From Candidatus Woesearchaeota archaeon (GTDB lineage Archaea > Nanobdellota > Nanobdellia > Woesearchaeales > GW2011-AR9): a stretch of 50,625 nt of DNA. The notes below the pieces were generated by a model that was not told where the DNA came from, did not search any database, and saw nothing but the letters and a program-made list of their open reading frames with translations. The DNA lies in NCBI GenBank assembly GCA_018657845.1, contig JABHWJ010000013.1:1-50625 (forward strand). The letters are read 5' to 3'. Below, piece after piece: positions 1 through 49,601 of the stretch. The position numbers and the translations under genes are program-made. Each line of letters opens with the position of its first letter. The stretch's first letter is position 1.

Positions 1-88
1 TGTTATGGTTGTTGGGTAGTGGAAATCAACTAGACAAGTAGACAACCACCATGAAGGTATATAAATGAGGAGATCTTGTTTATGGTTT

Positions 89-1397: not shown

Positions 1398-1492
1398 TTT
1401 TGGTTGTTTTTTGATATTTCTTTTTTTGTCATTCTATTATTTTTTTAAGTTGTTGTTTTTTTGTTTTTGATTTTTTCTTAAATATAAATAAC

Positions 1493-2347: not shown

Positions 2348-2375
2348 TTAAGATTTAGATAAATAGTTTTAGTTT

Positions 2376-4518: not shown

Positions 4519-4584
4519 GAGATTACCTTCGAATATTCTTTATTTTGAAGTTTAAGTATTTATAATGATTTATGTTTTTGAGAG

Positions 4585-5889: not shown

Positions 5890-5910
5890 GAATAAACCCC
5901 CTAGTTGTTA

Positions 5911-5959
<49 letters not shown>

Positions 5960-5990
5960 GGTTATGTTGTTTTGTTGTTGTTAAACTTTT

Positions 5991-6071
5991 ATTAAAAGCA
6001 ATTTGCACGGCCCGAGATGAGTTCTCAAAACAACGAACTCATGGGCCTCCCTTGGCAAAATCGCTTTTAAT
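5991..6071. other. Long imperfect inverted repeat / hairpin of unknown function
   Basis: Nested arms ATTAAAAGC/GCTTTTAAT, TTTGC/GCAAA, GGCCC/GGGCC and ATGAGTTC/GAACTCAT around a 10-nt loop; GC-richer than its flanks. Confidence 0.8.
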
Positions 6072-6090
6072 GTTAGTGAATGTGTCATTG

Positions 6091-21513: not shown

Positions 21514-24500
21514 TTACTTCCGTTTCTTGGTTACTACAGCTACACCTAATCCTACTGCAACAAGTATTAATATAACCAACACACCTAACAAAGCGACATA
21601 GGTGTTACTTTCTCTAAATGAAGAGGTCACTCCAGATACAGATGTTTCTGCTACGCTTCCGGGTCCTTTGAGTTGGTCAATTATTTGTTGTGTTAAAGAG
21701 GGCGTAGTTAAGTCGGCAGTAGACGAAGATTCACAAGGACCTACATTTAATGTAAGTTTTTCAGTGTCTTCTAAGATGTCATCTCTGTAAACTTCTACTT
21801 CGATGGTGTATTCTCCTTCTTTTGCATCAGTTACATCAAGAGTAAAAGTTAGAGTGTCATCGTTGTCATTATCAGAGTAATCTTCTAATTTTAGGTTTTT
21901 CTTTTCTAAGTTAATTCCTAAATCAGTGTTTTTTACTCTGATACTTACGTCATCTTCGTCTTTAGTTCCAATGTTCTTTATGAGTACAGATAGAGAAACG
22001 TATTCGTTACAGTAGGTTTTTTCTACTAAACTTGTAGATGAAATTACAATGTTGTGAGAATCTCTTTCAATTCCTACATCTTTGGTTTCTTCATCAGCGT
22101 GTTCTGCTCCGTCACTGGTTTCTCCTTCAACTTCAATGATAAGTTCGTATTCATCTTCTTCTAGGTCTGAAGGAAGAGTGAATTTGATGGTTTCTTTGTG
22201 GTCGTCTCCATCATCTAAGTCGAAGTTCTCAGAGATTTCTTCTAAGTCATCTTCATCGTCATCAATGTTTTTGATGGTGATGGTGATGAAAACATCTTCT
22301 AAGTCGTCGTTTCCTGTGTTCTTAACATTAACTTCGATTTCGTTTTCTTCTCCAGGATAAAATTTACCACTACTTTTACCATTAACTTCAACATCTTCAA
22401 TGATTAAGTCACTTTCAGCTTGTAGGTAAAGATCAATTGTTGAGGAGACGGTAGTCGCATCAGCTTTAGCTTCAACTTTTATGTCTCCAAGATTATCTTT
22501 CTTACCATCAGCATCTTCAGGAACGTAAACGGAAACCCAAGCAGTAACTTCTTCGAGAGGATCAAGTGTTCCCAAATTTAGTTCTTCACTAAAAGTTCCA
22601 CTTTCAGTAAGAGAGAACTTAACTTGATAATCGTTGTTAATAGCACTAGTGATTTTTGTTTCAGTTAAAGAATCAAGAGTTCCTTTGTTCTTAACAGTGA
22701 AGGATTTTTTGAAGGTGGTTTCACGAGTAGCATCTTCGATTTCAATCTTATCAGTTGTAGTTAATCCAGCTCCTAATTCATCAACAACTTCGTAAGTAGA
22801 GAAACCTTCGAATGTAGTGAAGACATAAGTGTTGCTTTTTTGTTCGCCTACACAATCTTCACAAACTGCGTTGTCTTTCAAGATTACTGGGTTACTGAAA
22901 GAGGTACTGTAGAAAGTAATAGTAGCATCAACGTTAGTGAATTCTTCTGCCATACCTATTGAAGTATCAATAGAAAGGTAGTGTTCACTTAATTCGATTA
23001 CTTCATCTAAGTCAGTGAGGTCTCTTAGATCAACAGCTCCGAATTCTACTTTTCCATAATCGTTTTCAATAACTAACTCCCAATCTTCTAATTGGTTGTC
23101 AGTTGCATCTGCAGGAATGTTGGTTTCAAAAGATTCTGCAATGGGAATTTTACTAACTAAGATGCACCATTCTTCTGTTTCTTCCCCGTTGATTGCGGCA
23201 TATAAGTAATGAGCACCTTCTCCATCTGGAGAAAATTCATAGCTGCTTCCGGTGTGGACAGGATCTTCTAATTTTGAATTGTACCAAGTAACTAAATGGT
23301 CGTATCCTTCTTCAGCAAGAGTTACTTCTAAAGCTGGTTCGAAAGCAATACCATCAGCAATGGCCCAACAGCCATCAGTTTCTGGTGTCCAATCTTCAAT
23401 GCAACTGTTTCTTTTTATGTCTACAGTTTCTGTGGTTGATTGAGTAGAGTCATCTCTGAAAAGAGCTTTTACAGAAATTGTGTTAGTAGTTTCTTCAGTG
23501 AGTTCGTCTGCATAAATCTTTACAGATTTTGTTTTGACTTCGTTAGGATTAATTGTAACTCCTGGAAGATCAAGTTCTATGACTTCGTTGTCAGAAGAGA
23601 TAAGGAAGTGAACATCATCTTCAATATTGTCTCCAGCGTTAGTGTATTCAATTACAACTTTAGTAAATTCTTTACAAGTAAGTTCTTCTTGAAGTACTTT
23701 TAAGTTTGAGATAACAATATCTGCGGGTTCTTGTTCTACTACAAAGACAAAATCGAAAAGGTCATTACGTAGAGATTTATCCATGTAGTCTTTTCCTTCT
23801 GCTTTGATATTAACATCATATTTCCCTTCAGGAACTTCATAAGAAAGGCTTTCTTTCAAAATAACTACTTGAGAAGCTCCAGGATTTAGATTAAAAGTTT
23901 CGGTATCTTCGAAAGTAAAATCTAATGAAGATACTTCGGCAGTGATTCCAGTTACCATATATTCTAGATTGTTTTTAACAGTAAATTGGACACTAACTTC
24001 TTCTAAAGGATTAACTGGAGTAGATTCTTCTCCAGAGGTTACAGAATCGCCATTAACTTTAACTCCACTAATAGTAAGAGCAGAAGTGATTGTAGCATCT
24101 ACTGTAAACTCTGTAGGTTCATATCCATCGTTGGCAGTAAAGGTGCAGGTTCCTTCTTTACCATTGTCTTCCCAATTGCCCAAAGATAAGGTTAATTCAT
24201 TACCGTCGATTGCACAAGTTATTCCACCAGTAGCGACAGCACCAGTAAAAGCTAAGATGTCGCCATCAGCGTCAGTAATGAAATTGGTTAAATTTAAGGT
24301 TTTTTCTTCTGTGTTGACTTCTTCTAATTTCTGAGCGGAAATGGTTCCTTCGGGAACTTCGTTAGCATTTCCATTACTGGATCCTAATGTAGGAGTGTCA
24401 AATTCTTTCCAGATAGAAGAACCGTCGTGTTGTCTTCCTAAAGATTTACTTTTGCCAGGAACAGCAAGATCTCCGTCTTCTCCATAAGAAGCGTCGTCTA

Positions 24501-24819
24501 CTGTATTTCCATCGCTATCTTTTAGGATGAGTTTTTCTCCAACATTATTAAGAGTAAGAATAGCAGCTAGTGATTTAGTTTTACCTGCTTTTATTTTTAT
24601 TCCTGTAAGAGAAACGACTTTATTATCGTCTTCAATGGTCCAACCATTAAGAGTAATGGTTTCACCAGCATTGTAAAGTTCGATTCCATCAGGATTTGTG
24701 GAAAATTCATTAATAAATACTGTTCCGGTGTAATCGGAATCTGCTAATGCTGCTCGAGTAGTTAAAAGAAGAGCAACAATTGCTAATACAACAAAAAAGA
24801 TTTTGTGGTTTGTTTTCAT
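21514..24819 (-). CDS. Large acidic S-layer-like surface protein (lamin-tail domain plus Ig/CARDB repeats, C-terminal TM)
   Basis: Signal peptide; VFINEF..IELYN..LNGWTI..LNN.GE..SLGR..W..PTLG (LTD); repeated VKN.G motifs; TM followed by KKRK. Confidence 0.8.
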   Translation of the reverse strand: MKTNHKIFFVVLAIVALLLTTRAALADSDYTGTVFINEFSTNPDGIELYNAGETITLNGWTIEDDNKVVSLTGIKIKAGKTKSLAAILTLNNVGEKLILKDSDGNTVDDASYGEDGDLAVPGKSKSLGRQHDGSSIWKEFDTPTLGSSNGNANEVPEGTISAQKLEEVNTEEKTLNLTNFITDADGDILAFTGAVATGGITCAIDGNELTLSLGNWEDNGKEGTCTFTANDGYEPTEFTVDATITSALTISGVKVNGDSVTSGEESTPVNPLEEVSVQFTVKNNLEYMVTGITAEVSSLDFTFEDTETFNLNPGASQVVILKESLSYEVPEGKYDVNIKAEGKDYMDKSLRNDLFDFVFVVEQEPADIVISNLKVLQEELTCKEFTKVVIEYTNAGDNIEDDVHFLISSDNEVIELDLPGVTINPNEVKTKSVKIYADELTEETTNTISVKALFRDDSTQSTTETVDIKRNSCIEDWTPETDGCWAIADGIAFEPALEVTLAEEGYDHLVTWYNSKLEDPVHTGSSYEFSPDGEGAHYLYAAINGEETEEWCILVSKIPIAESFETNIPADATDNQLEDWELVIENDYGKVEFGAVDLRDLTDLDEVIELSEHYLSIDTSIGMAEEFTNVDATITFYSTSFSNPVILKDNAVCEDCVGEQKSNTYVFTTFEGFSTYEVVDELGAGLTTTDKIEIEDATRETTFKKSFTVKNKGTLDSLTETKITSAINNDYQVKFSLTESGTFSEELNLGTLDPLEEVTAWVSVYVPEDADGKKDNLGDIKVEAKADATTVSSTIDLYLQAESDLIIEDVEVNGKSSGKFYPGEENEIEVNVKNTGNDDLEDVFITITIKNIDDDEDDLEEISENFDLDDGDDHKETIKFTLPSDLEEDEYELIIEVEGETSDGAEHADEETKDVGIERDSHNIVISSTSLVEKTYCNEYVSLSVLIKNIGTKDEDDVSIRVKNTDLGINLEKKNLKLEDYSDNDNDDTLTFTLDVTDAKEGEYTIEVEVYRDDILEDTEKLTLNVGPCESSSTADLTTPSLTQQIIDQLKGPGSVAETSVSGVTSSFRESNTYVALLGVLVILILVAVGLGVAVVTKKRK

Positions 24820-37081: not shown

Positions 37082-39109
37082 ATGCATAAAAAGAGGTGTA
37101 TTAGAGATAGGAATAGTTGGGAGAGTAATAAAAAAGGTCAGCTAACAATTTTTATAATTTTAGGAATTGTGCTTATTATTGCAGTTGCTTTGGGATTGGT
37201 TTTATGGAAAGGGACAGCTGTTTTTAAGCCAAGTAAAATATTTCTTTCAGAAAAAGGAAAAGTAGAATCTCAGATAACTTCTTGTATTTCGATTATAGGG
37301 CAGGAGGCTCTAGATATCATCGGGGCAACAGGAGGATATATTGAAATTCCTGATGAGATTTCTAAGGATGGTGGAAGTCATCTTAAACTTTCTCCATTTA
37401 TACTTGTCCCCTATTGGAGTGTGGGGCAATCAAAAAGAATTCCTTCTATAGATTTAGTCAAGGAAAGAATTGATGCATATATGGAATCAAGATTGCCATC
37501 ATGTATTTTTGCACCCTCTGAATTATTTGATGAATTTGATATTGTTGAAAAAGGTCCAGTGGAATCAAATGTTGAATTAGTAGATGGAGGAATTATCTTT
37601 AATGTTCGATATGATCTAGAAGTTAGAAATAAAGATGGATCTGTAGTTACAGAATTAATTGATCACTTAGCAGAATCTGATATTAAACTAAAGAACCTTC
37701 ATGAGATGGCCAGTGCAATAATGGAAGCTGAATTTGAAGAGTTGAAGTTAGAAGATATAACTATGGATTTAATTTCTCTAGAACACCCAAAGGTTCCTTT
37801 AATTGGTTTTGATATGAGTTGTACTAAAAAGAAATGGAAAGTAAATGAGGTACAAAGTACTTTGCAAGATATGTTAAGAGTTAATGTGGGAGAATTAAAA
37901 GTAAGTGGAACAAATTATGTGGAATTTCCAGAAGAACTTCCCTATTATAATACTCATTATGTTTGGAATGTAGGTTTAGAGGATCCAGAAATTACAGTTA
38001 ATCTAAATTATCAAGATGGGTTTCCGTTTTATTTCCAGGTGACTCCAAGTCAAGGAAATACTATGAAAAGTGGAGTTCTAGGGGGACAAAGTTTGTTATC
38101 CTTTTTATGTTTGCAATCTTGGAAGTTTACTTATGATGTGAGTTATCCAGTGATGGTAGAATTAATTGATGATACTACTGGGTATTTGTTTAATATGGCT
38201 TTTACAGTTCATGTGGTGCGAAATCAAGCTAATCGGAATGAAGCTACCACTACAATAAATCCTTCGCTATTAATTGATATTGGGGGAGATAATGAAGTTT
38301 ATTGTGAAGATTATGCTAAAAAACCATTGTTAGTTAAAACGTATGAGTTAATTCAGAATGAAGAAACAGGAATTTCTGACCATAAGCCTTTGAAAGATGT
38401 AGAGATAAGTTATACTTGTTTAAAGTATACTTGTGAGATGGGTGAAAGTGATTACAATTATGCAAAATATGGCGACGTAGCAATTTTAGATGAGATGTTT
38501 CCTTATTGTCCAGGTGCTTTATTGAGAGGAAACAAAGAAGGATACAAAGAAGCAATGGTGAGAGTAGTAACGGACAAGTATAAAGAAGTTGAGTTGAACA
38601 TGATCCCTATTTATTTATTAGATTCAGAGAAAATAAAAGTTGTTAAACATGGGTTTAAAGATCCTTTAACTGGAATTGAGGATGTTGCGGGGGCAGATGC
38701 TTTGGAAAAAGGAGAATTGGCTTCAGTAAAAATAACTAACAAGAAAGGAGGGGAAGTTTTCCACGAAGCAACATATATTTATCGTATGGAGAAAGGAGGG
38801 TTTAGTTTATTAGATCTTAATGAAGAGGATTCAGCAAAAGCTGAAAGTAGTTTAGAGTTATTGGGAGGAACAGATTTCAGTTATGAATTGGAAATTTATG
38901 TTTTTGATGAAACTGATATCAAAGGAGGATATCAAGGAATTTGGGATGTTGATTGGGATTCTTTGAAAAGTGGAGGAGATGTCGTTTTCCATGTATTAGC
39001 TCAAGACTCATGGGATTCCGATGTTGATATGTTTGATTTTGTAGCAAATTTAGATGTGTATAGTTCATATGTAACGGTTCCAACAATCGGGAGCGTAGGT
39101 GAAGAATGA
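37082..39109 (+). CDS. Large exported protein with class III (type IV pilin-like) signal peptide
   Basis: KKG|QLTIFIILGIVLIIAV; CI......ALD.IG..GGY motif; first gene of a coupled operon. Confidence 0.8.
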   Translation: MHKKRCIRDRNSWESNKKGQLTIFIILGIVLIIAVALGLVLWKGTAVFKPSKIFLSEKGKVESQITSCISIIGQEALDIIGATGGYIEIPDEISKDGGSHLKLSPFILVPYWSVGQSKRIPSIDLVKERIDAYMESRLPSCIFAPSELFDEFDIVEKGPVESNVELVDGGIIFNVRYDLEVRNKDGSVVTELIDHLAESDIKLKNLHEMASAIMEAEFEELKLEDITMDLISLEHPKVPLIGFDMSCTKKKWKVNEVQSTLQDMLRVNVGELKVSGTNYVEFPEELPYYNTHYVWNVGLEDPEITVNLNYQDGFPFYFQVTPSQGNTMKSGVLGGQSLLSFLCLQSWKFTYDVSYPVMVELIDDTTGYLFNMAFTVHVVRNQANRNEATTTINPSLLIDIGGDNEVYCEDYAKKPLLVKTYELIQNEETGISDHKPLKDVEISYTCLKYTCEMGESDYNYAKYGDVAILDEMFPYCPGALLRGNKEGYKEAMVRVVTDKYKEVELNMIPIYLLDSEKIKVVKHGFKDPLTGIEDVAGADALEKGELASVKITNKKGGEVFHEATYIYRMEKGGFSLLDLNEEDSAKAESSLELLGGTDFSYELEIYVFDETDIKGGYQGIWDVDWDSLKSGGDVVFHVLAQDSWDSDVDMFDFVANLDVYSSYVTVPTIGSVGEE

Positions 39110-42100
39110 ATACTAAAAAACTGGTGACTTTATTTATCATTATGTTAATGGTAATGCTCCCAGTAGTTTCAGCTGTGGAAATTTCAGAAGTGGTGGTAAG
39201 GGATGTCACTGAAACTGGAGCAACAGTAGAATGGTTGACTGATGAAGAAGCTGATAGTGCAGTTGATTATGGTTTAGATAAAGAAAATTTTTCTAATGAA
39301 ATGAATGAAGAAGAGGTTTTAGAACATTCTGTGGCTTTGGTTGGTTTGGATTCTGGAAGTGATTATTATTTTAAGGTAATGAGTGGTGATGCAGAAGATG
39401 ACAATAGTGGAGATTTTTATTCATTCAAAACTTTAGAAGGAGAGGTTGTTGAGGAAGAAGGTTTTAAGTTAGAGATTGAAGTTCCAGAATATCTTGCAGA
39501 AGAAGAGGTTGATCTTACAGGGGTAGCTTCGGTAGGAAGTAAGGTTAAATTATATCTTGATGGGTTATTAGAAGGGATTGTAACTGTTAGTGAAGAAGGA
39601 ACTTTTGAATTTTTGGAAGTAGATTTGACGAGAAATGAGTGGAATACTTTATTGTTTTTAGCTAAGAGTGGAGAGGAGGAGATTAGTAAGGAGTTTAAGG
39701 TATTTGTAGATCTGAAGGCTCCACAGATAAGTTTGATTGGAGAGGTTCCTGAATTTCTTTTGGAAGCTGAATTAGCTATTAAGGGTAAGATCGGTGAGGA
39801 AGCCCAAGTAGTGGTTTTACTTAATGAACAAGAGGTTTATAATAATAAGACTAGTGAGTTTTTAGTTGATTTAACTTTGGTTGAGGGAGAGAATACCTTA
39901 TTAATTAGTGCAGAAGATTTAGCTGGAAATAAAGAATTTGTAGAAAGAACTATTTTATTAGACATGTCTGCTCCCGAAGTAAGTTTTGATTTTGAAAAAG
40001 GGATGGAATATTATCAAGGGAATGCAGAAACACAGATTTTTGGACAAACAGAAGCAGGAGCAAAATTATATCTTTATTATTTTAAACAAACAGCTTCTGG
40101 AAAAGATCCAGACTTTAGTAGGGCTTTTGGTGAAGCAACTGCCGATGAGAATGGAAGCTTTGTTTTTGACGAAGTAGATTTAGATCACCCGCCTACATTT
40201 ACTTTATTAGAGAAATTAGGCCCTAAACAAGTACCACAAGAATTATTAGAAGTAGAGATTTCTTCTTATGAAGGGGCAGATCAACAAGAAAATTGGATAA
40301 CTTATGTTTATGTTATTGCTGAAGACAAAGCAGGTAGGGTAGGTTATGCAGAGAAAACTATTCAGATTCATTCTTGTTTCTCTGGAGAGTTGAAGTTTAA
40401 TGTTATGCCATTGACTGAATTTCAGTTACCTAGACGTTTGGATCCAGATTTATTAGATGACGGAAGACAGGTTGTTACAATGGTTTTAGATTTAGATTAT
40501 TTGGGACAAGGTCAACCGTTAACAGATGCAAATGGGAATATTATTTCTGAAGGTTTTGAGATTAGTGATATTAATTTTAGAAAAGCTTGTACTCATGGAA
40601 TGATTGATGATGAGAGCACGGCATTAGCTTGTAAGATTTTGCCAGAGACTCCACAGAAAAAAGTTCCTAATGCCAATAAGGATGCTTGGTTTGTTCAATA
40701 TACTTTAAACTCTGCTGAAGATTTTAGTGAAAAGGAAGATGATTTTTGGAATGATTTTAAGAAAAGGCAAGTTGTGTTTCCAATAAAAGCAGAGATAAGT
40801 TATCGAGAAAGATTAGCCCCTGGACAACAAGGTTATAATTCTAATCAATATGGGGGACAACAGAGCCCATATAGTCAATATAGTCAATACAGTGGTTCTG
40901 GAAGTAGTCTTTATGGAGGTAGTAGTTATGGAAGCGCATATGGCAGTAATTATGGTAACAATGTTTATGGAAGCCAATTATATGGTCCTTTGAAAACACA
41001 AACGGTTTGTTTAAATCCTGGTTATTTCGTAGATATTCCAATTGATAGTGAAGATTTAATTCCCGATTGGTTGGCTGATGATGGAGTTAGAATTCTGAAT
41101 AATACAATAGAAACAATTGATACAATAAATGAATATTTGTATGATGCAATGGTTATTGCGGGAGTTACTTGCGGAGCGAGTTTTATATTGAGGATGGCAG
41201 CTAGATGGTATAGGTTATTCCAACAGAAATGGGAACCTTATCTTTCAGAAGCTGAAAAACTTGCTGCGGCAGTAGGTGTAACTACAGGAGAAAAAGGCCA
41301 ATGTCCTTTGGATCAAGGTGGACTATTTGCTGATGACACAATTGCTAATTGGAAGAAGTTACAAAATAGTGATCATGCAGACAAGCAAACAGCTAATTTC
41401 CCAGAAAATTTAGATGATCTTAGTTTGAATCTGAAATTGAATTGTCCAAAAACTGCCAGTGCTTGGAAAATAGAAGATGGAATAGATCAAGTTTTCAAAT
41501 ATTCTTGTTATCGGGTGTTCTGTAAAGCGGCCCCCGCTAGATGGACTGAGGATAAAACAGAAACTAAGGTTCAAGCAACCATATTAAAGGGTCAGAGTTG
41601 TGGAGGAACAACTGGAAAAGGATTACCTCTACAGAAATTAGAAAATTGTGATAAAGAATTTACTTACATGAGTACTTCGTTGGGTTTGAAAGGAATCCAG
41701 CAAACTGGGACTGAAAACTTGAGAGATTGTTGGAAAGGTCCTAATGGAGTAATCTATTTTTATTTTAAGCAGAAGAATACAAATGTAGATGAACGAAATA
41801 AAGGGATATATCATTTAACACCATTAGATCATATTACTGGTTCTTTTGGAGATATTCCTGCAGATGATTTAGTTGTTTATCAACCAAAAGGTTCAGATAA
41901 TTATATTGTGGGGGTAGATGACACTTGTAATAATCTTTGTAAAAGGACTCCTGGATTTGAGGCTTTGAAAAAGGGACAAGGTTTAACTAAAGCTTGTAAG
42001 TTAGAGAAAAAAGACGGTTCTATTGAAGTGAATACTGGAGAATTTACTGCAGGATATACTAAAGATTGTTTTATTAATGAAAAAACAAAAACTTTACAGC

Positions 42101-44526
42101 AGTGTATCTGTGTGGGAGCTGAAGAGAAACAAGAAACTTATGCGGCGAGAACGGCATTAAGGGCGGATGGAAATAATGTCGAAGAGTGGTCTTATCGACA
42201 AGATCGGATTTTCCAAGAATCTAATGAACAACAAGGAACTTATTACCCAAAATGGAGATATTATGGGGGAAGAGATTTCCCAGCTAGTTTTGGTTTAAAC
42301 CATTTATTAGATTATACGCGTCCAGATAATGAGGAGATTGCAGAAGTCAATCCAAATACTCAACATATTGGGGCAGTGCAAAGTTTGTGCATTAGTGGAG
42401 TGTACAATAGGTTAAAATTATTAAGAGACACTTTAGATTATGTGGCACAGTGTATTACTGATGCGAAACATAATAGTATAAATGATGCAGGAATTTGTAA
42501 ACATTTAATGAGTCAATATGTTTGTGGTTTGGTATACAAGATAATTGCATATGCTGCTAAAGGATGTTTACCAATAACTTTTAGTGATGAAGAATCTAAG
42601 GGTAGTTTTGATAAATTAGGAAAAGGAATAGAACTTGGAATTGGTTCTCTTTATGAAACAGTAGATACTTCTTTTGAAGATTTGAAAAGTGAGTTTGGTA
42701 ATGCTAAATTAAATGAATTTGTATCTGGAGGAGTAGAAGGTTTTACTCGATCGGTGTGTATGGCAGCATTGGGTTATGATTGGGTTTTTGATATGGATTT
42801 CTTAATGGATGCAGCTTATGCAACTCCATTTAAGACAACTGCCTTAGTGATACCAGAAAGAGAATTAGTATCTTATGATCCAACTCAGAAATCAGCTATC
42901 TATAGTTATAGCTTGGGAGCGTCATTATTTCCGGGATGTGATATCCGAAGTTGGAATGTTAAATTGAAATGTGTGGGTCCAGAAGACATGGGCAAGCCAG
43001 GAGTAGATTGTACCCAACAAGGCTGTGACTGTGCGAAGATCTCAGGAGCTTCTCCATTCTCTTACGATCGGGAAAGGATAATGGAGGGTGGAACTGGATT
43101 TGATGTAAGTGCCGGAGGATATGCTAGTTTACCTGTACCTTCGCCACAAATTATTACTAGCCAATATAGATATGATCACGTTGTAGTAGAGTTGATGTTA
43201 GAGCAATATGCAGATCCATCGACTTGTTTTGATGAAGGATATTTCACTGGAAATGTAGGGAGATTCTATTTCCCAGTTGTAGAAGTTGGAAGTGAGCCAA
43301 GTGTGGATTGTAATGTTGATTTAGAGTCAGGTAGATTTATTTGTAGTGGGTTGTCTGAGTTTTTTAGTACCGGAGCAGGTTACTTTGAATGGCCATTTGT
43401 GGATTGTGCAAATCAGGAATCGGGAGGGTATGTTGCATGTAATAGTCCAAATGGAATTATAAAAGGAGATCCCTTAATTATAAGACCACACATAACTACT
43501 GATGGGACGCAAGATTTGTGTATGTATATGACTTTAAATGGAGGTCCACAATCAATCACGAAAGTAGGAAAGATTCCTAAATTAAATGTGGGGTCAATAA
43601 GTCCTACTTATTCTTTTAGTCCAAGTTTAGATAATAGTTGGTTTGTGGGAGGGTTAGGAGAGAATATTTTCTTGGACCAGGGAACAAGTAATCTTGGGTG
43701 TAATGATGCACTTGCAAAGGAGAAAACTGGTGATCCAATAAAGTCTAATGGGGTATTTTCTGTATCTTTTACAGGAGGAAGTATTGCTGGAACTTTTAAA
43801 GTGAAGGTGGGTGCGACTGTTGAAACTCCAGGTTATACAAAAAGTGAAGAACTCTTGATTAACCCTGCCAATAGTGGGCAAGATTTTAATGTTAATCAAA
43901 TAAATCAAATACCCTTTGTGGTAGGCGGATATAAAATTAAAAACATTTTGAAGAGTACTTTTGTAGGGCCGAATGGGAAGTGTACTTGGAAGACGCAATC
44001 AGCTAACACTCCTGGGATGCAAACAACTGGGACGAAGACATTAACATTAAGTATGGAATTAAGGTATCCTGGATTGGGAGGAAGTTGCGAATTAGGAGTT
44101 ACTACCAAAATACCAGGTTCACAATTTGGAGTTACAGGACATCAACAACCAATAGTAATTCAGGAATCTAAAATATCTTTGGTTAGCCAAGATGTCCAAG
44201 AAACTTATGATTACTTTTTGGCAGGATCATATGCAGATACTTTTACTCGAGCAATTAATATGGTCCAAGGCAATGAGGGAGGAGAGAAGGAAATCCATGC
44301 TTATTATTTGGCTGTTGCGGCGAGAGTTTTACAAGGGGCAAATCAAGCAGAGAATACAAATCCTAAAGCGTATAAAGATGAAGTTGTTGGTTTGATTACC
44401 CAGTTTGCTAATGAAAATTATGGTCCAGAGATTAAAGGAAGGAATGATTACAAGAAAATAGCTGCGTATATGAAGGAGATTGGGAACGCTTTTGGAGTAA
44501 GTGGGGATATTTTGTCTAAAATTTGA
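39106..44526 (+). CDS. 1806-aa secreted protein: FN3-like domain, Ig-like repeats, Cys-rich body
   Basis: Signal peptide VVSA|VE; ATVEWLTDE..S.V.YG..H.V.L.GL...YYFKV.S (FN3-like); D..AP and EGEN...AEDLAGN Ig repeats; internal hydrophobic segment; ATGA overlap. Confidence 0.85.
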   Translation: MNTKKLVTLFIIMLMVMLPVVSAVEISEVVVRDVTETGATVEWLTDEEADSAVDYGLDKENFSNEMNEEEVLEHSVALVGLDSGSDYYFKVMSGDAEDDNSGDFYSFKTLEGEVVEEEGFKLEIEVPEYLAEEEVDLTGVASVGSKVKLYLDGLLEGIVTVSEEGTFEFLEVDLTRNEWNTLLFLAKSGEEEISKEFKVFVDLKAPQISLIGEVPEFLLEAELAIKGKIGEEAQVVVLLNEQEVYNNKTSEFLVDLTLVEGENTLLISAEDLAGNKEFVERTILLDMSAPEVSFDFEKGMEYYQGNAETQIFGQTEAGAKLYLYYFKQTASGKDPDFSRAFGEATADENGSFVFDEVDLDHPPTFTLLEKLGPKQVPQELLEVEISSYEGADQQENWITYVYVIAEDKAGRVGYAEKTIQIHSCFSGELKFNVMPLTEFQLPRRLDPDLLDDGRQVVTMVLDLDYLGQGQPLTDANGNIISEGFEISDINFRKACTHGMIDDESTALACKILPETPQKKVPNANKDAWFVQYTLNSAEDFSEKEDDFWNDFKKRQVVFPIKAEISYRERLAPGQQGYNSNQYGGQQSPYSQYSQYSGSGSSLYGGSSYGSAYGSNYGNNVYGSQLYGPLKTQTVCLNPGYFVDIPIDSEDLIPDWLADDGVRILNNTIETIDTINEYLYDAMVIAGVTCGASFILRMAARWYRLFQQKWEPYLSEAEKLAAAVGVTTGEKGQCPLDQGGLFADDTIANWKKLQNSDHADKQTANFPENLDDLSLNLKLNCPKTASAWKIEDGIDQVFKYSCYRVFCKAAPARWTEDKTETKVQATILKGQSCGGTTGKGLPLQKLENCDKEFTYMSTSLGLKGIQQTGTENLRDCWKGPNGVIYFYFKQKNTNVDERNKGIYHLTPLDHITGSFGDIPADDLVVYQPKGSDNYIVGVDDTCNNLCKRTPGFEALKKGQGLTKACKLEKKDGSIEVNTGEFTAGYTKDCFINEKTKTLQQCICVGAEEKQETYAARTALRADGNNVEEWSYRQDRIFQESNEQQGTYYPKWRYYGGRDFPASFGLNHLLDYTRPDNEEIAEVNPNTQHIGAVQSLCISGVYNRLKLLRDTLDYVAQCITDAKHNSINDAGICKHLMSQYVCGLVYKIIAYAAKGCLPITFSDEESKGSFDKLGKGIELGIGSLYETVDTSFEDLKSEFGNAKLNEFVSGGVEGFTRSVCMAALGYDWVFDMDFLMDAAYATPFKTTALVIPERELVSYDPTQKSAIYSYSLGASLFPGCDIRSWNVKLKCVGPEDMGKPGVDCTQQGCDCAKISGASPFSYDRERIMEGGTGFDVSAGGYASLPVPSPQIITSQYRYDHVVVELMLEQYADPSTCFDEGYFTGNVGRFYFPVVEVGSEPSVDCNVDLESGRFICSGLSEFFSTGAGYFEWPFVDCANQESGGYVACNSPNGIIKGDPLIIRPHITTDGTQDLCMYMTLNGGPQSITKVGKIPKLNVGSISPTYSFSPSLDNSWFVGGLGENIFLDQGTSNLGCNDALAKEKTGDPIKSNGVFSVSFTGGSIAGTFKVKVGATVETPGYTKSEELLINPANSGQDFNVNQINQIPFVVGGYKIKNILKSTFVGPNGKCTWKTQSANTPGMQTTGTKTLTLSMELRYPGLGGSCELGVTTKIPGSQFGVTGHQQPIVIQESKISLVSQDVQETYDYFLAGSYADTFTRAINMVQGNEGGEKEIHAYYLAVAARVLQGANQAENTNPKAYKDEVVGLITQFANENYGPEIKGRNDYKKIAAYMKEIGNAFGVSGDILSKI

Positions 44527-44554: not shown

Positions 44555-45082
44555 ATGAGAGAAAAAAGAGGGAAGGCGAGGACGATTGTATTGTTATTAC
44601 TATTTTTAATAGTGTTCTTGGTATTGATATATGGTGGTTATTTTTATAAATTAATGGAAAAAGAGAAAGTAGAATTGGACGAAGATTTAGGATTGGGAGA
44701 AGAACCAGATATTGGAGAGGTAACTGATTCTGAGGAGCCTGAAGTGGTGGAAGATGTTTCAGAAGAATCTGAAGAAACTTTAGTCGGATGTAATAAACAT
44801 CTTGAGGAATTAAATTGTGTTAAAGAGGGTTGTTTGTGGGAAAGTGATTTAATTTTATGTTATGATTACGGAGAGATTGAAGAAGAGTGTAGTTTTAGTG
44901 AGAGTGAAAATGATTGTTTGTTGTTTGGTTGTATTTGGAATGAAAAAGATCTTTCTTGTGAGGAATTTGAAGAGACGTCTGATGTTTTAGGTTGTTTTGA
45001 TTTTATTGATAAGCAGAATTGTGAGGCAGAGAATTGTTTTTGGGATGCAATAGAAGAACTGTGTGAGGAAAGAGAAATATGA
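44555..45082 (+). CDS. Membrane-anchored acidic protein with three C-x8-C-x4-C-x-W-x6-C repeats
   Basis: KRG plus TM; repeats CNKH..CLW, CSFS..CIW, CFDF..CFW. Confidence 0.8.
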   Translation: MREKRGKARTIVLLLLFLIVFLVLIYGGYFYKLMEKEKVELDEDLGLGEEPDIGEVTDSEEPEVVEDVSEESEETLVGCNKHLEELNCVKEGCLWESDLILCYDYGEIEEECSFSESENDCLLFGCIWNEKDLSCEEFEETSDVLGCFDFIDKQNCEAENCFWDAIEELCEEREI

Positions 45083-48000
45083 AGAAAGGATTTTTATTAA
45101 TGTTTTTTTTTGGGTTGTTTTTTTTAAGTGCAGGATTAGTTCAGGCAATAATTCCTTATTCAATTTTGGTTCAAGACTGTGATCCGTATATGCTTAGTGA
45201 GACTGGATGTGCTACTAATGATCTTACTGAAGACGTTTATTATTTTTATGATGAAGTGGAGAGGAGTTGGAAGTATCAATTAGACTCTGGACTTACTTTA
45301 GGGACTGGAGAATGGTTAGAATTAAATGAGATCTCTATAGATATACAAGATAATGTTTTTGATCCAGGGATTGAAAGTTGTGGACAACATGATTTTATTT
45401 ATCGTGAATATTGTTGGCTTAATAATTTTTTGATAGAAGCGCATGAAGATTCAATAGAATGGTTGTATGATTCTGAAGAAGCTTATGATCCAGTTTATTT
45501 AGATGGGTTAGATGTAATCTGTAAATGGCATCGACAAGAGGAAATAGATTCTGGACCTTGGTCGCCTGCCACTGGTCTCAACCGCCCATTTGAAGGGAAG
45601 ATTTTTTTTGTTCCTGAATTATTAGAAACAGAATATCCAGTGGAAAAAATATTATATCCTGGGGAGGATTTGGGAGTTGTTACTACTGCGTTTGCATGTG
45701 ATAATTCTCAAATGAAATTAAAACAAGAAGAAGAATTAAATTTTGAATTTTCTAGTTTGGGCCAATATTGTGATTATTCTTTTGAATGCGAAACGGGAGT
45801 TTGTGCAGATGGGGTTTGTTGTGATCAGAAATGTGATTGGGGGTGTTCATCTTGTGCTTCAGAAGGAAACGAAGGATCTTGTGTTCAAAAACCAGAAAAC
45901 ACAACTTGCGGAAATGGTAAAATTTGTACTCTAGAAGGAGAGTGTAAAAAAGAGTTGGGAGTGAAATGTAGTCTAGGAGAAGAGTGTTTAAGTGGTAATT
46001 GCAACAGCGGGGTTTGTTGTAACGTAGAATGTGAAGGTGGTTGTGAGTATTGCAATAAGCCTGGAAAGGTGGGGACTTGTATTTTTAGATATAGTGGTTA
46101 TCCTGGGTTAGATTATTGTCCAGCTGGAGAAGTTTGTGATGGTTATGGTGGATGTAAAGAAGGAAAAGTTGTGTGGTTGGCAAACGAACAAGATGTTCCT
46201 CCGGAAGAAGAGTTCACTGATGAAGTGATTATAGATGATCCCGAAAGTGTAAACTATTTGTGTAAGAATTGTTATGTTACTCCTTATCAAGAAACTGAGG
46301 CGGTTGGAAAGGCATCGGATGGTTTTTTATTGAATGGAGTTAGATTGTTACTCAATGACCCTAGTTCTCCTTATCTATCTGCTAGAAAAAATAATTATGG
46401 TACAATAGAATTAATCAGATCTTTAGAAGCAGCCTCTTGTTATATGAATCAGAATTTTGGGGGAGTAAAATTACAGATAAACGATTTGAGTAAAGAGAAA
46501 GGGGGAGAAATATCTGGACATGCTAGTCACGAGAGTGGGTTGGATGTAGATACTGGAATATTTACTTTTTCTAACGGGAATTTTGAAGGAGAATTAAGTA
46601 AGAAATGTTTATCTGAGATTGTTGTTGAAGTTAATTCTGAAGGAAAGGAAGTGAAGAAAGTTGGTTGTAAGGCGGGAAAGGTTTATGATTCTTTTAATAA
46701 TCCAGAAGCCTTAAGAGCCAATTGGGAATTTTTGAAAAAGTTAAATCAAATTTATGATGTACAATTTATTTTCTTGGATAAAGAATTGATAAATCCAATT
46801 AAAAAATATGCCACTTCTATTGGCGAAGGGCATCTTTGGGGGGAAGTAGGAGGTGTGCTTAAACATTGGCCCAATCACCATCATCATTATCACATCAGAT
46901 TAAAGTGTCCACTTGGAGATAAAAAGTGTAAGGGTGCAGGAGCGGTTAAGGAAACCCCCTGTGAAAGTGTTGATGAAGAAATAAATAATTGTGAAAGCAC
47001 TTTCAAAAAAGAAGGTTTTCAATGTATGTTTAAGGGAAGTGAAGGAGATGCAATTACTTCTGGATGTAAAGTTACAGAAGCATGTTATGGTGGAGAATGT
47101 TGTTCAGCAGGAGATTATTGTTGTCCAATCAGTGGAGAGAAAGGAAAATTAGTAGGGAAAGAATTAGATGAGACCGCAGTAATTGTAGAAAGTTTAGAGT
47201 GGAAAGAAACTAATGTTGAAGGGGCGGATTTGTATATTTATGAAACTCAATGTAAATCTAAATTAAATGAGTTGAATGATAGGGTTGAGGGGATTGTGTT
47301 ACCTAAAGGATTAGCTAAAGAGTCTACCTTAGGAGAGGTATGTGCAGATGCTTCATTTGAAACAATGATAATTGGAAGTCTTCCATATCCGACAAATCTT
47401 AAAAAATGGGAAGATGCAATAAAAGCAGAAGGCTTACCTGGAAAAACATGGATGGGGAAATTAGATTCTAATGGTCCAACTGATGAAAAGTTCATGGAAG
47501 ATGTTGGAAGAGATTCTTTGCTTTTTATTCCATGTACTACTGATTTAAGTCAACCCTTAGAAATATTTTATTTTTTGCATGGAAATAGGGGATTTGGTGG
47601 TCCAAAAGATTTGAATGATTTTAAAACTAGGGCGGCTCCTAAAATTAAGGAAATGGGTTTAGATGGAAGAAATATTATTTGGGTGATTCCGGAATTACCT
47701 TGGTCTTCAGGAGACGAATCTAAGCAAGCGCTAGCTAAAGGAACTGGAAGGGCAATTCCTAAGAGGCAAAAAAGTCTTTTGGCAAAGGGAAATTTGGAAG
47801 GAATAGACTTTGTTCAATTTCATCAAGATATCATGGTGATTATAGAAGAGCTTGAACCAAGTTTTGATGAAAGTTTAGTTACTTATATTTCTATGGCTGG
47901 TCACAGTGCAGGAGGAGCGGCCTTATGGTGGGCAGCAGAAAGTGGGGCTTTAGAAACTTTAGCAGTTAATAAAATAACTTTTTCTGATGCCGATTATTTT

Positions 48001-49017
48001 GGTGGAGCGAAAAAAGTATGGGCGAAGTATTTTGGTGGAGGAAAAGTTCCAGGGGGACTGGGAGCAGAAATTGGAGCAGAATTAAACTTGTTAGTTCAGG
48101 ATCCTAGCAACAGGGGTGCCCATAATCCTACAGCTTCGGCGTTGAGTTTTATTAAAAAATGGAAAGGAAATCTTCCAGATAATATTAATTATGTTCCTTT
48201 AAAGATGAAGCATAGGCCAATTGGGAAATATTCCTTATCTTGGGTTAGTGATAATCCTCCTATTGAGGCTGTAGATATTCCTTATGTCAATAGAGAAATA
48301 ATTGAAGATGGTTCTAAAAAAGAAGTAAAAGTTTATTTTTATTTTCATGGTAATACTAAATCTACCCAGAGTAAGAGTTTTGTAGAAAGTTATGTAGAAA
48401 ATTATGATCTGTTAGAAAATATGGCTGGGTTAGAAGAAAAGACTGGAGAGAAAGGAGTTTTGGTTGTGTTGAAAGGAGCTTCTCCTAACAGTGTGGGAAA
48501 TTCTGGACAGTGGATGAAAGGGACAAGAGGAGATGAATCTTGGTTTAGTTGTTTTTATGATGAAGCTTTAGTGAAGTTAGATGATTTGGGTTTAAAGCCT
48601 ACTTCAATGAGGTTGATGTCTCATAGTGCAGGGGGTAAGGCGATTAGGAATATTGTTAATTCTGGGTTTTTGGGCGAATCGGGATTGTTGCCTTTAGAAT
48701 CTGTATCTTATTATGATTCTTGTTATGGGGGTTGGTGTAGTGATGTTATGGATGAAATTGTGGATGAAGAAGCAGAGATTTTTGCTATCTGGTCTCCAGA
48801 AGGAGCTTCTCCCCAGAATAAGGTTTCAGCATTTAGTTTTTTGACTGGGATGAGTAAGGAAGAAGTGAAAGGAATGAAAAATGGAGATGTATATGAAGGA
48901 AAGGAAGGATTTGAAAATACTGTTTATGCTGTTAAGGTAGAAGAGTCTCATGGAGATGTAGTGAGGAAATGTTTTTACAACTATATTTCTGATGGGGAAT
49001 GTGAGGCGGCTAGTTAA
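45079..49017 (+). CDS. Secreted multidomain hydrolase: Cys-rich repeats, MepA/M74 murein endopeptidase domain, two alpha/beta-hydrolase domains
   Basis: Signal LVQA|II; AVG....G.L.NG, YGT.EL, NDLS..GG, GHASHESGLDVD, WPNHHHHYHIRLKCP....C; then FLHG/GHSAGG/SDA and FHG/SHSAGG/YDS. Confidence 0.85.
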   Translation: MKKGFLLMFFFGLFFLSAGLVQAIIPYSILVQDCDPYMLSETGCATNDLTEDVYYFYDEVERSWKYQLDSGLTLGTGEWLELNEISIDIQDNVFDPGIESCGQHDFIYREYCWLNNFLIEAHEDSIEWLYDSEEAYDPVYLDGLDVICKWHRQEEIDSGPWSPATGLNRPFEGKIFFVPELLETEYPVEKILYPGEDLGVVTTAFACDNSQMKLKQEEELNFEFSSLGQYCDYSFECETGVCADGVCCDQKCDWGCSSCASEGNEGSCVQKPENTTCGNGKICTLEGECKKELGVKCSLGEECLSGNCNSGVCCNVECEGGCEYCNKPGKVGTCIFRYSGYPGLDYCPAGEVCDGYGGCKEGKVVWLANEQDVPPEEEFTDEVIIDDPESVNYLCKNCYVTPYQETEAVGKASDGFLLNGVRLLLNDPSSPYLSARKNNYGTIELIRSLEAASCYMNQNFGGVKLQINDLSKEKGGEISGHASHESGLDVDTGIFTFSNGNFEGELSKKCLSEIVVEVNSEGKEVKKVGCKAGKVYDSFNNPEALRANWEFLKKLNQIYDVQFIFLDKELINPIKKYATSIGEGHLWGEVGGVLKHWPNHHHHYHIRLKCPLGDKKCKGAGAVKETPCESVDEEINNCESTFKKEGFQCMFKGSEGDAITSGCKVTEACYGGECCSAGDYCCPISGEKGKLVGKELDETAVIVESLEWKETNVEGADLYIYETQCKSKLNELNDRVEGIVLPKGLAKESTLGEVCADASFETMIIGSLPYPTNLKKWEDAIKAEGLPGKTWMGKLDSNGPTDEKFMEDVGRDSLLFIPCTTDLSQPLEIFYFLHGNRGFGGPKDLNDFKTRAAPKIKEMGLDGRNIIWVIPELPWSSGDESKQALAKGTGRAIPKRQKSLLAKGNLEGIDFVQFHQDIMVIIEELEPSFDESLVTYISMAGHSAGGAALWWAAESGALETLAVNKITFSDADYFGGAKKVWAKYFGGGKVPGGLGAEIGAELNLLVQDPSNRGAHNPTASALSFIKKWKGNLPDNINYVPLKMKHRPIGKYSLSWVSDNPPIEAVDIPYVNREIIEDGSKKEVKVYFYFHGNTKSTQSKSFVESYVENYDLLENMAGLEEKTGEKGVLVVLKGASPNSVGNSGQWMKGTRGDESWFSCFYDEALVKLDDLGLKPTSMRLMSHSAGGKAIRNIVNSGFLGESGLLPLESVSYYDSCYGGWCSDVMDEIVDEEAEIFAIWSPEGASPQNKVSAFSFLTGMSKEEVKGMKNGDVYEGKEGFENTVYAVKVEESHGDVVRKCFYNYISDGECEAAS

Positions 49018-49019
49018 AG

Positions 49020-49601
49020 ATGAGTTTTAATGTAAGAGGAGTTCCAAGGGTTGTTTTAGTTTTGTTAATTATTGGAGGGCTTGTTTTTTTAAGTGCTTTA
49101 ATCTTAGGAGTTACGAATTTGAGTGGGGCTTCTGGAGGAGAAGGAGATGCACTTCTTTATCAGAATGGTCCGTTCGGTGAAGGATTAGTGTTGAAGAATT
49201 TTCAATGGTGTGATTATGTAGATATTTATTATAGATGTATTAATCCAAGGAGTACTTTTGATGTTCCAGGGAGTGTATCTTTTACTTTAACTGTGGAAAG
49301 TGATGTAGTGAGTGGAGGGGTACAGTTGGTAGAAAATTATGCAATTAAGGATAAAGAAGGAAATTATCATTTAGTGATGGATGAAGCGAATGCTATTTAT
49401 TTTGAAGGGATTAGTTCTGAAGATAAGGATAAAGTTTTTTTTAAGAATTCATTTAGGTTAGAAGAAGATCTTAGCCCGGGAGATTATATTTTGGAGTTAG
49501 AAGTAGAGAATCTTTTGTTTGGGGGAAAGTTGACGTTGGAAGAAGAAATTAGTGTTGAGGAAATTTTACCAGAAGATCCGGCAGGGGTGGAGTACCAATG
49601 A
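49020..49601 (+). CDS. Membrane-anchored single Ig-like domain protein
   Basis: RG plus hydrophobic N-terminus; beta-rich with PGDYILELEVEN strand. Confidence 0.7.
   Translation: MSFNVRGVPRVVLVLLIIGGLVFLSALILGVTNLSGASGGEGDALLYQNGPFGEGLVLKNFQWCDYVDIYYRCINPRSTFDVPGSVSFTLTVESDVVSGGVQLVENYAIKDKEGNYHLVMDEANAIYFEGISSEDKDKVFFKNSFRLEEDLSPGDYILELEVENLLFGGKLTLEEEISVEEILPEDPAGVEYQ

Follow-up and report, generated by a model that had tools for sequence, protein, structure and literature searches.

The g1312 Gene and Its Surroundings

We analyzed a contig of 50,625 nucleotides (nt), hereafter the window, from a Candidatus Woesearchaeota archaeon, and focused on g1312, a gene for a secreted protein of 1312 amino acids (aa) that carries a peptidase domain of the type found in the bacterial murein endopeptidase MepA. 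The source genome consists of 862,812 bp in 44 contigs and is estimated to be 89% complete; the window is one whole contig. It is archaeal, because TFIIB, RadA/Rad51, GatD, TYW3, a GCD14-type tRNA methyltransferase, and PAC2 are encoded on it, and the taxon-named closest homologues of its proteins are mostly from Candidatus Woesearchaeota archaeon. The g1312 gene belongs to an operon of six plus-strand genes that begins at position 37082 and runs into the contig end; the intergenic gaps are −4, 28, −4, 2, and −4 nt, and all six products have an N-terminal signal or anchor segment. The parts of g1312 are as follows.

45079..49017, plus strand: g1312, secreted multidomain protein, 1312 aa (open reading frame, ORF)
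45079..45147, plus strand: predicted signal peptide, aa 1–23 (...GLVQA|II), with a hydrophobic segment at aa 7–25 and the cleavage site placed by eye
45148..45750, plus strand: N-terminal region, aa 24–224, no family match
45751..46164, plus strand: two Cys-rich repeats, aa 225–362 (Cys map)
46288..46956, plus strand: Peptidase_M74 domain (MepA-type LAS zinc peptidase), aa 404–626 (Pfam, alignment to 1tzp, structural model, Foldseek)
46957..47148, plus strand: Cys-rich linker, aa 627–690 (Cys map)
47224..47325, plus strand: leader segment, aa 716–749, which precedes domain B in other proteins (alignments to P0008 and P0002)
47353..48261, plus strand: predicted alpha/beta-hydrolase domain A, aa 759–1061 (8-sequence alignment, model, fold matches)
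48271..49014, plus strand: predicted alpha/beta-hydrolase domain B, aa 1065–1312 (4-sequence alignment, reciprocal matches of the A and B profiles)

The N-terminal region (aa 24–224) had no match in Pfam, NCBIfam, or PHROG. Homologues of the Cys-rich repeats occur in large proteins, some of which are named Polyangiaceae, Myxococcales, or Deltaproteobacteria.

The MepA-Type Peptidase Domain

The Pfam profile Peptidase_M74 (PF03411) matched aa 408–626 of g1312 with an E value of 3.1e-16 and a score of 60.1 bits, against a gathering cut-off of 25. When g1312 was compared with the sequences of the Protein Data Bank (PDB), the sole significant match was Escherichia coli MepA (1tzp_A; E = 5.7e-5, about 20% identity), and the protein outside the M74 domain returned only non-significant rows with E values of 0.03 to 0.64 (Fab light chains and NrnA). 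According to the passages on these enzymes in PMC6403190 and PMC3927764, MepA is zinc dependent and cleaves the bond between D-alanine and meso-diaminopimelic acid (mDAP); the LAS motif definitions used here, H-x(3-6)-D and H-x-H, were taken from PMC3927764. Both motifs were located in g1312.

46516..46551, plus strand: GHASHESGLDVD at aa 480–491, the motif G-H481-A-S-H484-E-S-G-L-D489-V-D491, with the H-x6-D part of the LAS site (58-sequence alignment); it aligns with GHASHQTGLDVD of 1tzp
46867..46929, plus strand: WPNHHHHYHIRLKCPLGDKKC at aa 597–617
46873..46929, plus strand: the motif N-H600-H-H-H603-Y-H605-IRLK-C610-PLGDKK-C617, with H-x-H and C-x6-C, aligned to the HRAHMHVRLRCPADSLEC stretch of 1tzp

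In the same alignment, the segment HHHHYHIRLKCP...C of g1312 corresponds to HRAHMHVRLRCP...C of 1tzp, and the pair C610 and C617 to the C-x6-C of MepA. We also aligned the g1312 domain with its paralogue in the window and 56 single-domain relatives (58 sequences; residue number = alignment position + 399). Eight columns of this alignment are invariant (G475, H481, H484, G487, D491, H600, H603, and H605), and g1312 keeps all eight; S471, G476, S483, D489, N548, and R607 are nearly invariant. H484, D491, and H605 are the putative zinc ligands, assigned by analogy with LAS enzymes such as MepA. An AlphaFold model of the domain, built from the 58-sequence alignment, had a mean predicted local distance difference test score (pLDDT) of 93.1 and a predicted template modeling score (pTM) of 0.90. 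The top five Foldseek matches of this model in the PDB were all MepA chains, with E values of 3.5e-12 to 2.5e-10 and template modeling (TM) scores of 0.60–0.65; the next match was a hedgehog N-terminal domain, with an E value of 4e-3.

These results agree with an earlier note, made from the sequence alone, which had claimed a MepA-type domain within a 1312-aa archaeal secreted protein: the Pfam score, the match to 1tzp, the signal-peptide-like segment, and the archaeal contig all point the same way. The H-x2-H-x6-D, H-x-H, and terminal C-x6-C pattern that the note attributed to MepA could be aligned residue for residue with 1tzp, and the AVG and YGT elements that it reported upstream are found as AVGK at aa 408 and YGT at aa 440. 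Its statement that the LAS residues are retained holds for H484-x6-D491 and H603-x-H605 as well as for H481 and H600, all of which fall in invariant columns. The note had proposed a search against Pfam Peptidase_M74, in which the score exceeded the cut-off (60.1 vs. 25 bits), and had named a better structural match to another LAS family as a finding that would count against it, whereas the five best matches were to MepA. The second M74 gene, the two putative esterase domains, and the operon are not mentioned in the note.

The note had further suggested that the substrate is one that the cell lacks, and this fits the gene content of the source genome. In this 89%-complete genome, neither Mur_ligase_M nor the penicillin-binding-protein Transpeptidase domain had a match, while among 14 control genomes the two profiles matched 12 and 10, respectively. 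The lack of these matches suggests that the source cell produces no murein and no Mur-ligase-dependent pseudomurein, as far as a genome 89% complete can tell. Profile searches of the source genome also gave no match for SLT, M23, Amidase_2, or M15_4, and M74 was the sole family present out of the six wall-hydrolase families searched. The guanine-plus-cytosine (GC) content of the g1312 gene is close to that of the contig (0.362 vs. 0.349), so the gene does not look like a recent arrival.

A Second M74 Gene in the Window

The last gene of the operon encodes another M74 protein, which is cut by the contig end.

49598..50623, plus strand: second secreted M74 protein, 342 of 704 aa (Pfam)

It has a signal peptide, matches PF03411 with 65.1 bits at aa 60–275, and retains the same family-invariant residues as g1312. 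Its score against the MepA equivalog model (NCBIfam NF006947) was 70.1 bits, below the cut-off of 272. The full-length form is present in other assemblies as P0010, a 704-aa protein with a C-terminal domain B, and the P0010 cluster also holds a 342-aa member, encoded on a contig of 50,625 bp. The two M74 domains of the window are 38–41% identical and are not sisters in the M74 tree described below.

The Alpha/Beta-Hydrolase Domains A and B

The C-terminal half of g1312 contains two putative alpha/beta-hydrolase domains. The model of domain A, built from 8 sequences, had a mean pLDDT of 76.3 and a pTM of 0.83. Fold comparison by VIA-align related it to CE1 feruloyl esterases, esterase-D/IroE-type hydrolases, and mycolyltransferases with Z scores of 14.8 to 11.4, the best match being 8bbp_A (Z = 14.8, root-mean-square deviation [rmsd] 3.7 Å, 217 residues), and Foldseek likewise returned esterases with E values of about 1e-6 and TM scores of 0.4–0.5. 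Because no single match stands out, the substrate of domain A cannot be read from its fold.

In the alignment of domain A, H834-G835, the candidate oxyanion motif, is invariant in all eight sequences. In the predicted nucleophile elbow, G-H942-S943-x-G945-G946, the residues H942, G945, and G946 are invariant and S943 is present in seven of the eight sequences (P0007 has Gly). The position of the acid, D970, is D or E in 8/8, and H1045 and G1049 are invariant; S943, D970, and H1045 thus form a candidate triad. In domain B, the corresponding candidates, H1090-G1091 and the triad S1183, D1213, and H1291, are kept in 4/4 sequences. The hidden Markov model (HMM) of domain A matched the B domain of P0002 with an E value of 1.1e-12, and that of domain B matched the A domain of P0009 with an E value of 4.9e-7; since the two models match each other, the domains are considered to be paralogous. 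Just upstream of the B domain of P0008, aa 389–421 align with aa 710–742 of g1312 (E = 2.9e-5), and just upstream of the B domain of P0002, aa 714–735 align with aa 721–742 of g1312 (E = 0.002). The fact that this B-type leader sits upstream of domain A in g1312 suggests that domain B was interrupted at its start by the insertion of domain A.

A search with the C-terminal half retrieved 7 proteins, including the query's own, and the nearest Atlas clusters of this half had no Pfam family in common. Elsewhere, domain A or B is accompanied by Peptidase_M15_4 (P0002), SLT (P0003 and P0004), Muramidase and VanY (P0006), or VanY (P0007). The A/B module is thus a recurrent partner of murein hydrolases from several catalytic classes, with fusions to M15_4, SLT, VanY, Muramidase, and M23 domains. 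Domain A alone, when compared with proteins of 174–557 aa, gave no match. When 301 genomes of the order, including 4 other genomes of the same family, were searched with the domain A profile, only the source genome (G000) matched, and among the relatives domain A was detected by its own HMM in G006, G010, G016 (partial), and G023. Judged by these profile searches, domain A is rare but not unique to the source genome.

Distribution and Phylogeny of the M74 Domain

Among 1.84 billion representatives, the g1312 M74 domain matched 2071 at E ≤ 1e-3, 226 at E ≤ 1e-10, and 8 at E ≤ 1e-30. The closest matches are multidomain proteins, namely P0008 (M74 and B), P0009 (M74 and A), and P0015 (M74 and A). 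Domains M74 and A also stand at the end of P0021, a protein of 2816 aa whose cluster members are named Woesearchaeota archaeon. Besides the query's own protein, 10 of the 149 listed M74 representatives carried A or B, in one case only partially.

PF03411 was found in 8 of the 41 related genomes, including the source genome, and in 15 of 401 phylum-wide genomes, all 15 of which are from the same family (10 of 42 others) or the same order; E. coli was the sole control genome that matched. The M74 ORFs of the relatives have HxxHxH in 8/8 and HxxHx4DxD in 7/8. Short secreted proteins with a single M74 domain (251–296 aa) are encoded in G014, G021, G023, and G024, each on a different contig from the giant gene described in the next section.

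We constructed a quick maximum-likelihood tree of 147 M74 domains, which is unrooted and has few taxon labels; 10 of 157 HMM matches were dropped for partial coverage, and P0010 was omitted as a near-duplicate of the second window gene. A branch with an SH-aLRT support of 99 sets off a side of 59 rows that contains both M74 domains of the window, all 8 copies from related archaea, and all representatives fused to A or B. The sole taxon-named member of this side is a KSB1 bacterium, and on the other side the only taxon-named cluster among those looked up is from Myxococcota/Deltaproteobacteria. In the same clan as the window domains, P0030 and P0176 have M74 joined to a GDSL-type esterase or a CapA-type metallophosphatase; the source name of the GDSL-type fusion is “lysophospholipase L1-like esterase/murein endopeptidase.” The GDSL and CapA-type partners are the same partner types as those beside the archaeal operon.

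Near-identical copies of the g1312 gene were found in 20 DNA runs among the sequencing runs listed, labeled seawater or marine metagenome and drawn from 17 studies, and at least half of the sampled words of the gene were present in 15 of these 20 runs. The contigs of four runs differed from the g1312 gene by no indels and 4 single-nucleotide polymorphisms (3 synonymous changes and V1065A); these are low-depth DNA contigs with some bins uncovered, and 4 polymorphisms are too few for a selection test. An identical g1312 protein is encoded on 4 contigs in public data.

A Conserved Surface-Protein Cluster with a Variable Neighbor

The remaining genes of the operon are as follows.

37082..39109, plus strand: 675-aa membrane-anchored protein with an N-terminal transmembrane segment, first gene of the conserved cluster
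39106..44526, plus strand: 1806-aa giant surface protein, core gene of the family
44555..45082, plus strand: 175-aa acidic, Cys-rich, membrane-anchored protein, whose gene overlaps the start of g1312 by 4 nt
49020..49601, plus strand: 193-aa membrane-anchored protein, encoded directly after the giant gene in relatives (synteny)

The C-terminal third of the giant protein was detected in 31 of 41 related genomes; within the same family the count is 23 of 24, which makes the giant gene a core gene of the family. Its homologues are almost always present once per genome, in ORFs of 1500–2200 aa. A region of the giant protein (aa 1117–1800) is 31% identical to P0005 (E = 7e-95), which ends in domain A, and in P0011 and G015 a homologue of the giant protein is fused to M74 (C-terminal in P0011). 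As read from these sequences, both M74 and the A/B module are, in other organisms, covalently joined to the giant protein. The 175-aa protein has 51 D and E residues, 12 Cys, and weak Trefoil and PSI matches, and its gene is translationally coupled to g1312.

The neighborhood of the giant gene was examined in 19 of the 23 same-family genomes that have it (in the other four the gene lies at a contig end), which gives 20 loci together with the window. Eight of the loci reach upstream of the giant gene; all 8 have the 675-aa gene before it and 6 have PAC2, and a homologue of the 193-aa gene follows the giant gene in 19/19. The 175-aa gene and g1312 had no counterpart in the 19 syntenic loci; in terms of gene order, they form an additional insert that separates the 193-aa gene from the giant gene. 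In the window, the position after the 193-aa gene is occupied by the 704-aa M74–B protein. In the relatives, the gene or genes after the 193-aa homologue encode the following.

G018: Amidase_2
G010: SLT and domain A (and a weak GDSL)
G023: M23 and domain A, then SLT
G005: enolase, then M15_4
G014: Metallophos
G015: GDSL and a weak Hydrolase_2, with M74 on the giant protein
G012: Metallophos, and M23 below the cut-off
G007: a 2884-aa protein with SLT at its end
G001: DUF2272
G002: GH25 and Amidase_2
G004: GDSL just below the cut-off
G009: enolase, then GDSL
G011: GDSL, Hydrolase_2 below the cut-off, and FGE-sulfatase
G017: Metallophos and M15_4
G020: SLT
G021: M15_4 and SLT
G022: SLT and GDSL
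G024: M15_4 and SLT
G016: contig end, with the start of a domain A

A peptidoglycan-hydrolase domain of Pfam was thus detected above the cut-off in 13 of the 20 loci and below it in 2 more. The families in these 13 loci are Amidase_2, SLT, M23, M15_4, GH25, and M74, and their domains are carried by one of the two genes that follow the 193-aa homologue or by the giant protein. Domains that cleave esters or phosphoesters occur at the same loci (GDSL, 6/20; A/B, 4/20; Metallophos, 3/20). A long RelA/SpoT-type protein (HD_4, RelA_SpoT, TGS, and ACT) is encoded at the loci L021 (14884–16767, plus strand) and L023 (2358–4229, minus strand) of related archaeal genomes, where its gene adjoins enolase just downstream of the surface operon.

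Proposed Function and Alternative Explanations

We propose that g1312 is a secreted murein endopeptidase, most likely active, and forms a cassette of a surface apparatus directed against bacterial walls; we assign this reading, which is drawn from sequence and genomic context, a probability of about 0.6. In this scheme, g1312 would be exported by its signal peptide, and its M74 domain would act outside the archaeal cell as a zinc-dependent LAS peptidase that severs the peptide bridges between the strands of bacterial murein. Homology with E. coli MepA would make D-Ala-mDAP the likely bond, although the exact bond cannot be inferred. Judged by fold and context, domains A and B would probably be serine esterases and would free the wall or envelope of ester-linked substituents, e.g., O-acyl groups of the glycan. 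The apparatus, shared across the family, would consist of the 675-aa anchor protein, the giant protein of roughly 1800 aa, and the 193-aa anchor protein, and beside it each genome would bear a different set of wall-degrading enzymes. With such an apparatus the archaeon may attach to bacteria, breach them, or feed on them, living cells being the presumed target. The occurrence of varied wall-cutting enzymes at the same spot of a conserved cluster suggests a toolkit aimed at bacteria.

Several observations weigh against this proposal. The match to PF03411 spans only profile positions 1–201 of 240, the score of g1312 against NF006947 is 63 bits against the cut-off of 272, and the likeness of the M74 model to MepA is moderate (TM scores of 0.60–0.65 with an rmsd of about 8 Å); on the strength of the partial profile match and the low equivalog score, the specificity of g1312 may differ from that of MepA. 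The LAS fold also contains proteins that do not act on murein. No cell-wall-binding Pfam domain was found in g1312 at E ≤ 0.01. The proposed esterase role is drawn from a generic alpha/beta-hydrolase fold modeled with a pLDDT of 76, and aa 690–1312 had no Pfam or NCBIfam match and could be assigned to no curated esterase or lipase family. At 5 of the 20 loci no peptidoglycan-hydrolase domain of Pfam was present (Metallophos, DUF2272, GDSL, or contig end), and no RNA runs were among the listed sequencing runs that matched the g1312 gene. To our knowledge, the source archaeon has no known bacterial partner.

The main rival holds that the same enzymes digest free murein debris in seawater and provide an auxotrophic cell with amino acids and amino sugars, with neither attack on nor attachment to living bacteria. 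Such scavenging would suit the small genome (0.86 Mb), the recovery of the gene from seawater and marine metagenome runs across many studies, and the combination of secreted hydrolases and esterases, which is appropriate for polymer degradation. However, the enzymes are encoded with, and elsewhere fused to, a giant core protein that bears a signal peptide, and because of this linkage and these fusions, action at the cell surface fits better than a diffusible digestive enzyme. We therefore consider scavenging unlikely, while taking it seriously. A substrate other than murein, whether surface proteins of the archaeon itself (the giant protein among them) or a host archaeon's wall, of pseudomurein or another kind, is less probable still. 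It gains some plausibility from the non-murein members of the LAS fold, the hedgehog N-terminal domains that come next among the structural matches, the distance of g1312 from the MepA equivalog cut-off, its lack of a peptidoglycan-binding domain, and the reported status of cultured DPANN as episymbionts of archaea. Against it, MepA is by far the best structural match, and SLT, GH25, Amidase_2, M23, M15_4, and VanY, which are peptidoglycan-hydrolase families of Pfam, turn up at this genomic position or joined to the same partner domains. These families act on bonds that are absent from pseudomurein.

Some hydrolase folds have derivatives that only bind, and the M74 domain might likewise be a catalytically dead module that tethers g1312 to murein. 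This seems very improbable given that all eight family-invariant residues, including the histidines and aspartate of the motifs, are retained in both copies of the window, and given the conservation of HxxHxH (8/8) and HxxHx4DxD (7/8) in the M74 ORFs of relatives. Finally, M74 is a bacterial family, only E. coli matched among the control genomes, and the one taxon-named member of the 59-row clan is a KSB1 bacterium, all of which would be expected if a contig of a bacterium or a member of the Candidate Phyla Radiation had been misbinned into an archaeal genome and the enzyme were an ordinary bacterial autolysin. TFIIB, RadA, GatD, TYW3, and PAC2 on the same contig, the uniform GC content, and the order PAC2, 675-aa gene, giant gene, and 193-aa gene, which is kept in related archaea (PAC2 in 6/8, 193-aa gene in 19/19), leave this explanation scarcely any room.

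Beyond the proposed role of g1312 as a secreted murein endopeptidase, the cluster of the 675-aa, giant, and 193-aa genes, shared throughout this family of marine Woesearchaeota-like archaea, could encode a dedicated organelle for breaching bacterial walls with a fast-evolving effector position beside it, an idea that we put forward tentatively and would not yet favor over its negation. If it is true, this position would alternate among murein amidases, glycosidases, peptidases (here M74), esterases, and phosphoesterases, and these archaea would be episymbionts or predators of bacteria, engaged in a cross-domain interaction. The enzyme set would then mirror the wall chemistry of the partner, and M74 would point to Gram-negative partners with mDAP-type murein.

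Comparison with Known Systems

E. coli MepA (penicillin-insensitive murein DD-endopeptidase; MEROPS/Pfam M74; PDB 1tzp and 1u10) shares with g1312 the Pfam family, the H-x6-D/H-x-H motifs with the extra histidines, the C-x6-C pair, and the fold. MepA, however, is a periplasmic housekeeping enzyme of roughly 270 aa, whereas the domain of g1312 lies inside a 1312-aa secreted archaeal multidomain protein, and the last 40 or so positions of the PF03411 profile are unmatched by g1312.

Peptidoglycan hydrolases in DPANN archaea and Nanoarchaeota have already been published (PMC12352652, PMC8204110, PMC9723730), so that the general phenomenon is known. In the relevant passages, the smallest genomes of Woesearchaeota and Pacearchaeota are described as encoding large extracellular SLT proteins, proposed to bind or degrade bacterial walls (Castelle et al. 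2021; PMC8204110), and GH23 genes in metagenome-assembled genomes of Woesearchaeota underlie a proposed “vampiristic” lifestyle of peptidoglycan degradation (Vigneron et al. 2022; PMC9723730). The SLT proteins of fam00969, as these passages present them, resemble g1312 in lineage, very large size, secretion, a murein-degrading domain, and proposed role, and SLT proteins are found at the same genomic position in relatives, e.g., G007, G020, and G022. They differ in that neither g1312 nor the source genome has SLT, and the catalytic domain is M74, which cuts peptide bonds. An operon with a variable neighboring gene and alpha/beta-hydrolase partners is not described in the passages of PMC8204110 and PMC9723730.

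Strock et al. (2025; PMC12352652) report modular peptidoglycan hydrolases in 175 of 3,706 archaeal genomes, prominently in Nanoarchaeota, and two haloarchaeal peptidoglycan hydrolases that kill a bacterium. Like g1312, these enzymes are archaeal and secreted, with a horizontally shuffled hydrolase domain and a patchy distribution. Their definition as given there calls for a cell-wall-binding domain of Pfam, whereas g1312 has a catalytic domain only; a domain-pair screen of this type would miss g1312 for that reason. Neither M74 nor MepA occurs in the main text of PMC12352652. Our full-text literature searches found no paper that links Peptidase_M74 with archaea, and neither MepA nor M74 in the papers listed for Woesearchaeota, Nanoarchaeota, or Pacearchaeota. 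Relative to the literature covered, M74 in these archaea, the A/B module, the fusions to the giant protein, and the operon with a variable wall-hydrolase gene appear to be new.

Regarding the putative esterase domains, the passages of PMC6174289 and PMC6627197 that bear on O-acetylation describe it as blocking lysozymes and controlling lytic transglycosylases. O-acetylpeptidoglycan esterases (SGNH enzymes such as Ape), which are described there as permitting the action of lytic transglycosylases, are similar to g1312 in that an esterase is paired with a murein hydrolase. SLT and GDSL/SGNH occur in one protein at 2 of the 20 loci (G010, with a weak GDSL, and G022). Domains A and B are alpha/beta hydrolases and not SGNH enzymes, unlike Ape. 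We know of no need for de-O-acetylation on the part of an M74 peptidase, and by analogy the Ape precedent would fit the SLT-plus-GDSL proteins of the relatives better than M74. With the CE1, esterase-D, IroE, and antigen-85 hydrolases, domain A has in common the fold, the G-H-S-x-G-G nucleophile elbow, and the H-G oxyanion motif. It differs from them in its low identity (8–18%) and the absence of a Pfam match, and its candidate acid, D970, comes directly behind the first strand past the nucleophile helix, whereas the usual position is behind a later strand.

For most Woesearchaeota-like DPANN archaea, little is known about host or way of life, and the conserved operon, whose neighboring genes draw on most classes of murein hydrolase, offers a testable genomic marker for interaction with bacteria. 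The M74 family and proteins that escape domain-pair screens extend the catalogue of archaeal peptidoglycan hydrolases, and the A/B module, an uncharacterized alpha/beta-hydrolase module that accompanies wall hydrolases, may be a new wall-modifying esterase.

Other Features of the Contig

PHROGs gave no match for any of the six operon proteins and a viral fold search returned only generic esterases; a phage origin was set aside. A run of genes of the envelope-glycosylation type lies on the minus strand at 948–8957, comprising a PAP2 phosphatase, a UbiA prenyltransferase, two PMT_2-type glycosyltransferases, and a GT2. A 1101-aa protein with Lamin-tail and CARDB matches, likely a further surface protein, is encoded at 21514–24819 on the minus strand. 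At the contig start, a tyrosine recombinase (65–910, plus strand; Phage_integrase and a SAM-like N-domain) is present, which could be a chromosomal Xer-type enzyme rather than the integrase of a mobile element. The plus strand of the window has a strong excess of G over C, with an overall GC skew of +0.29. The skew reaches +0.45 to +0.51 over the membrane-protein genes at 948–3842 and 6091–8957, and because these genes are on the minus strand, the skew is not due to gene orientation alone.

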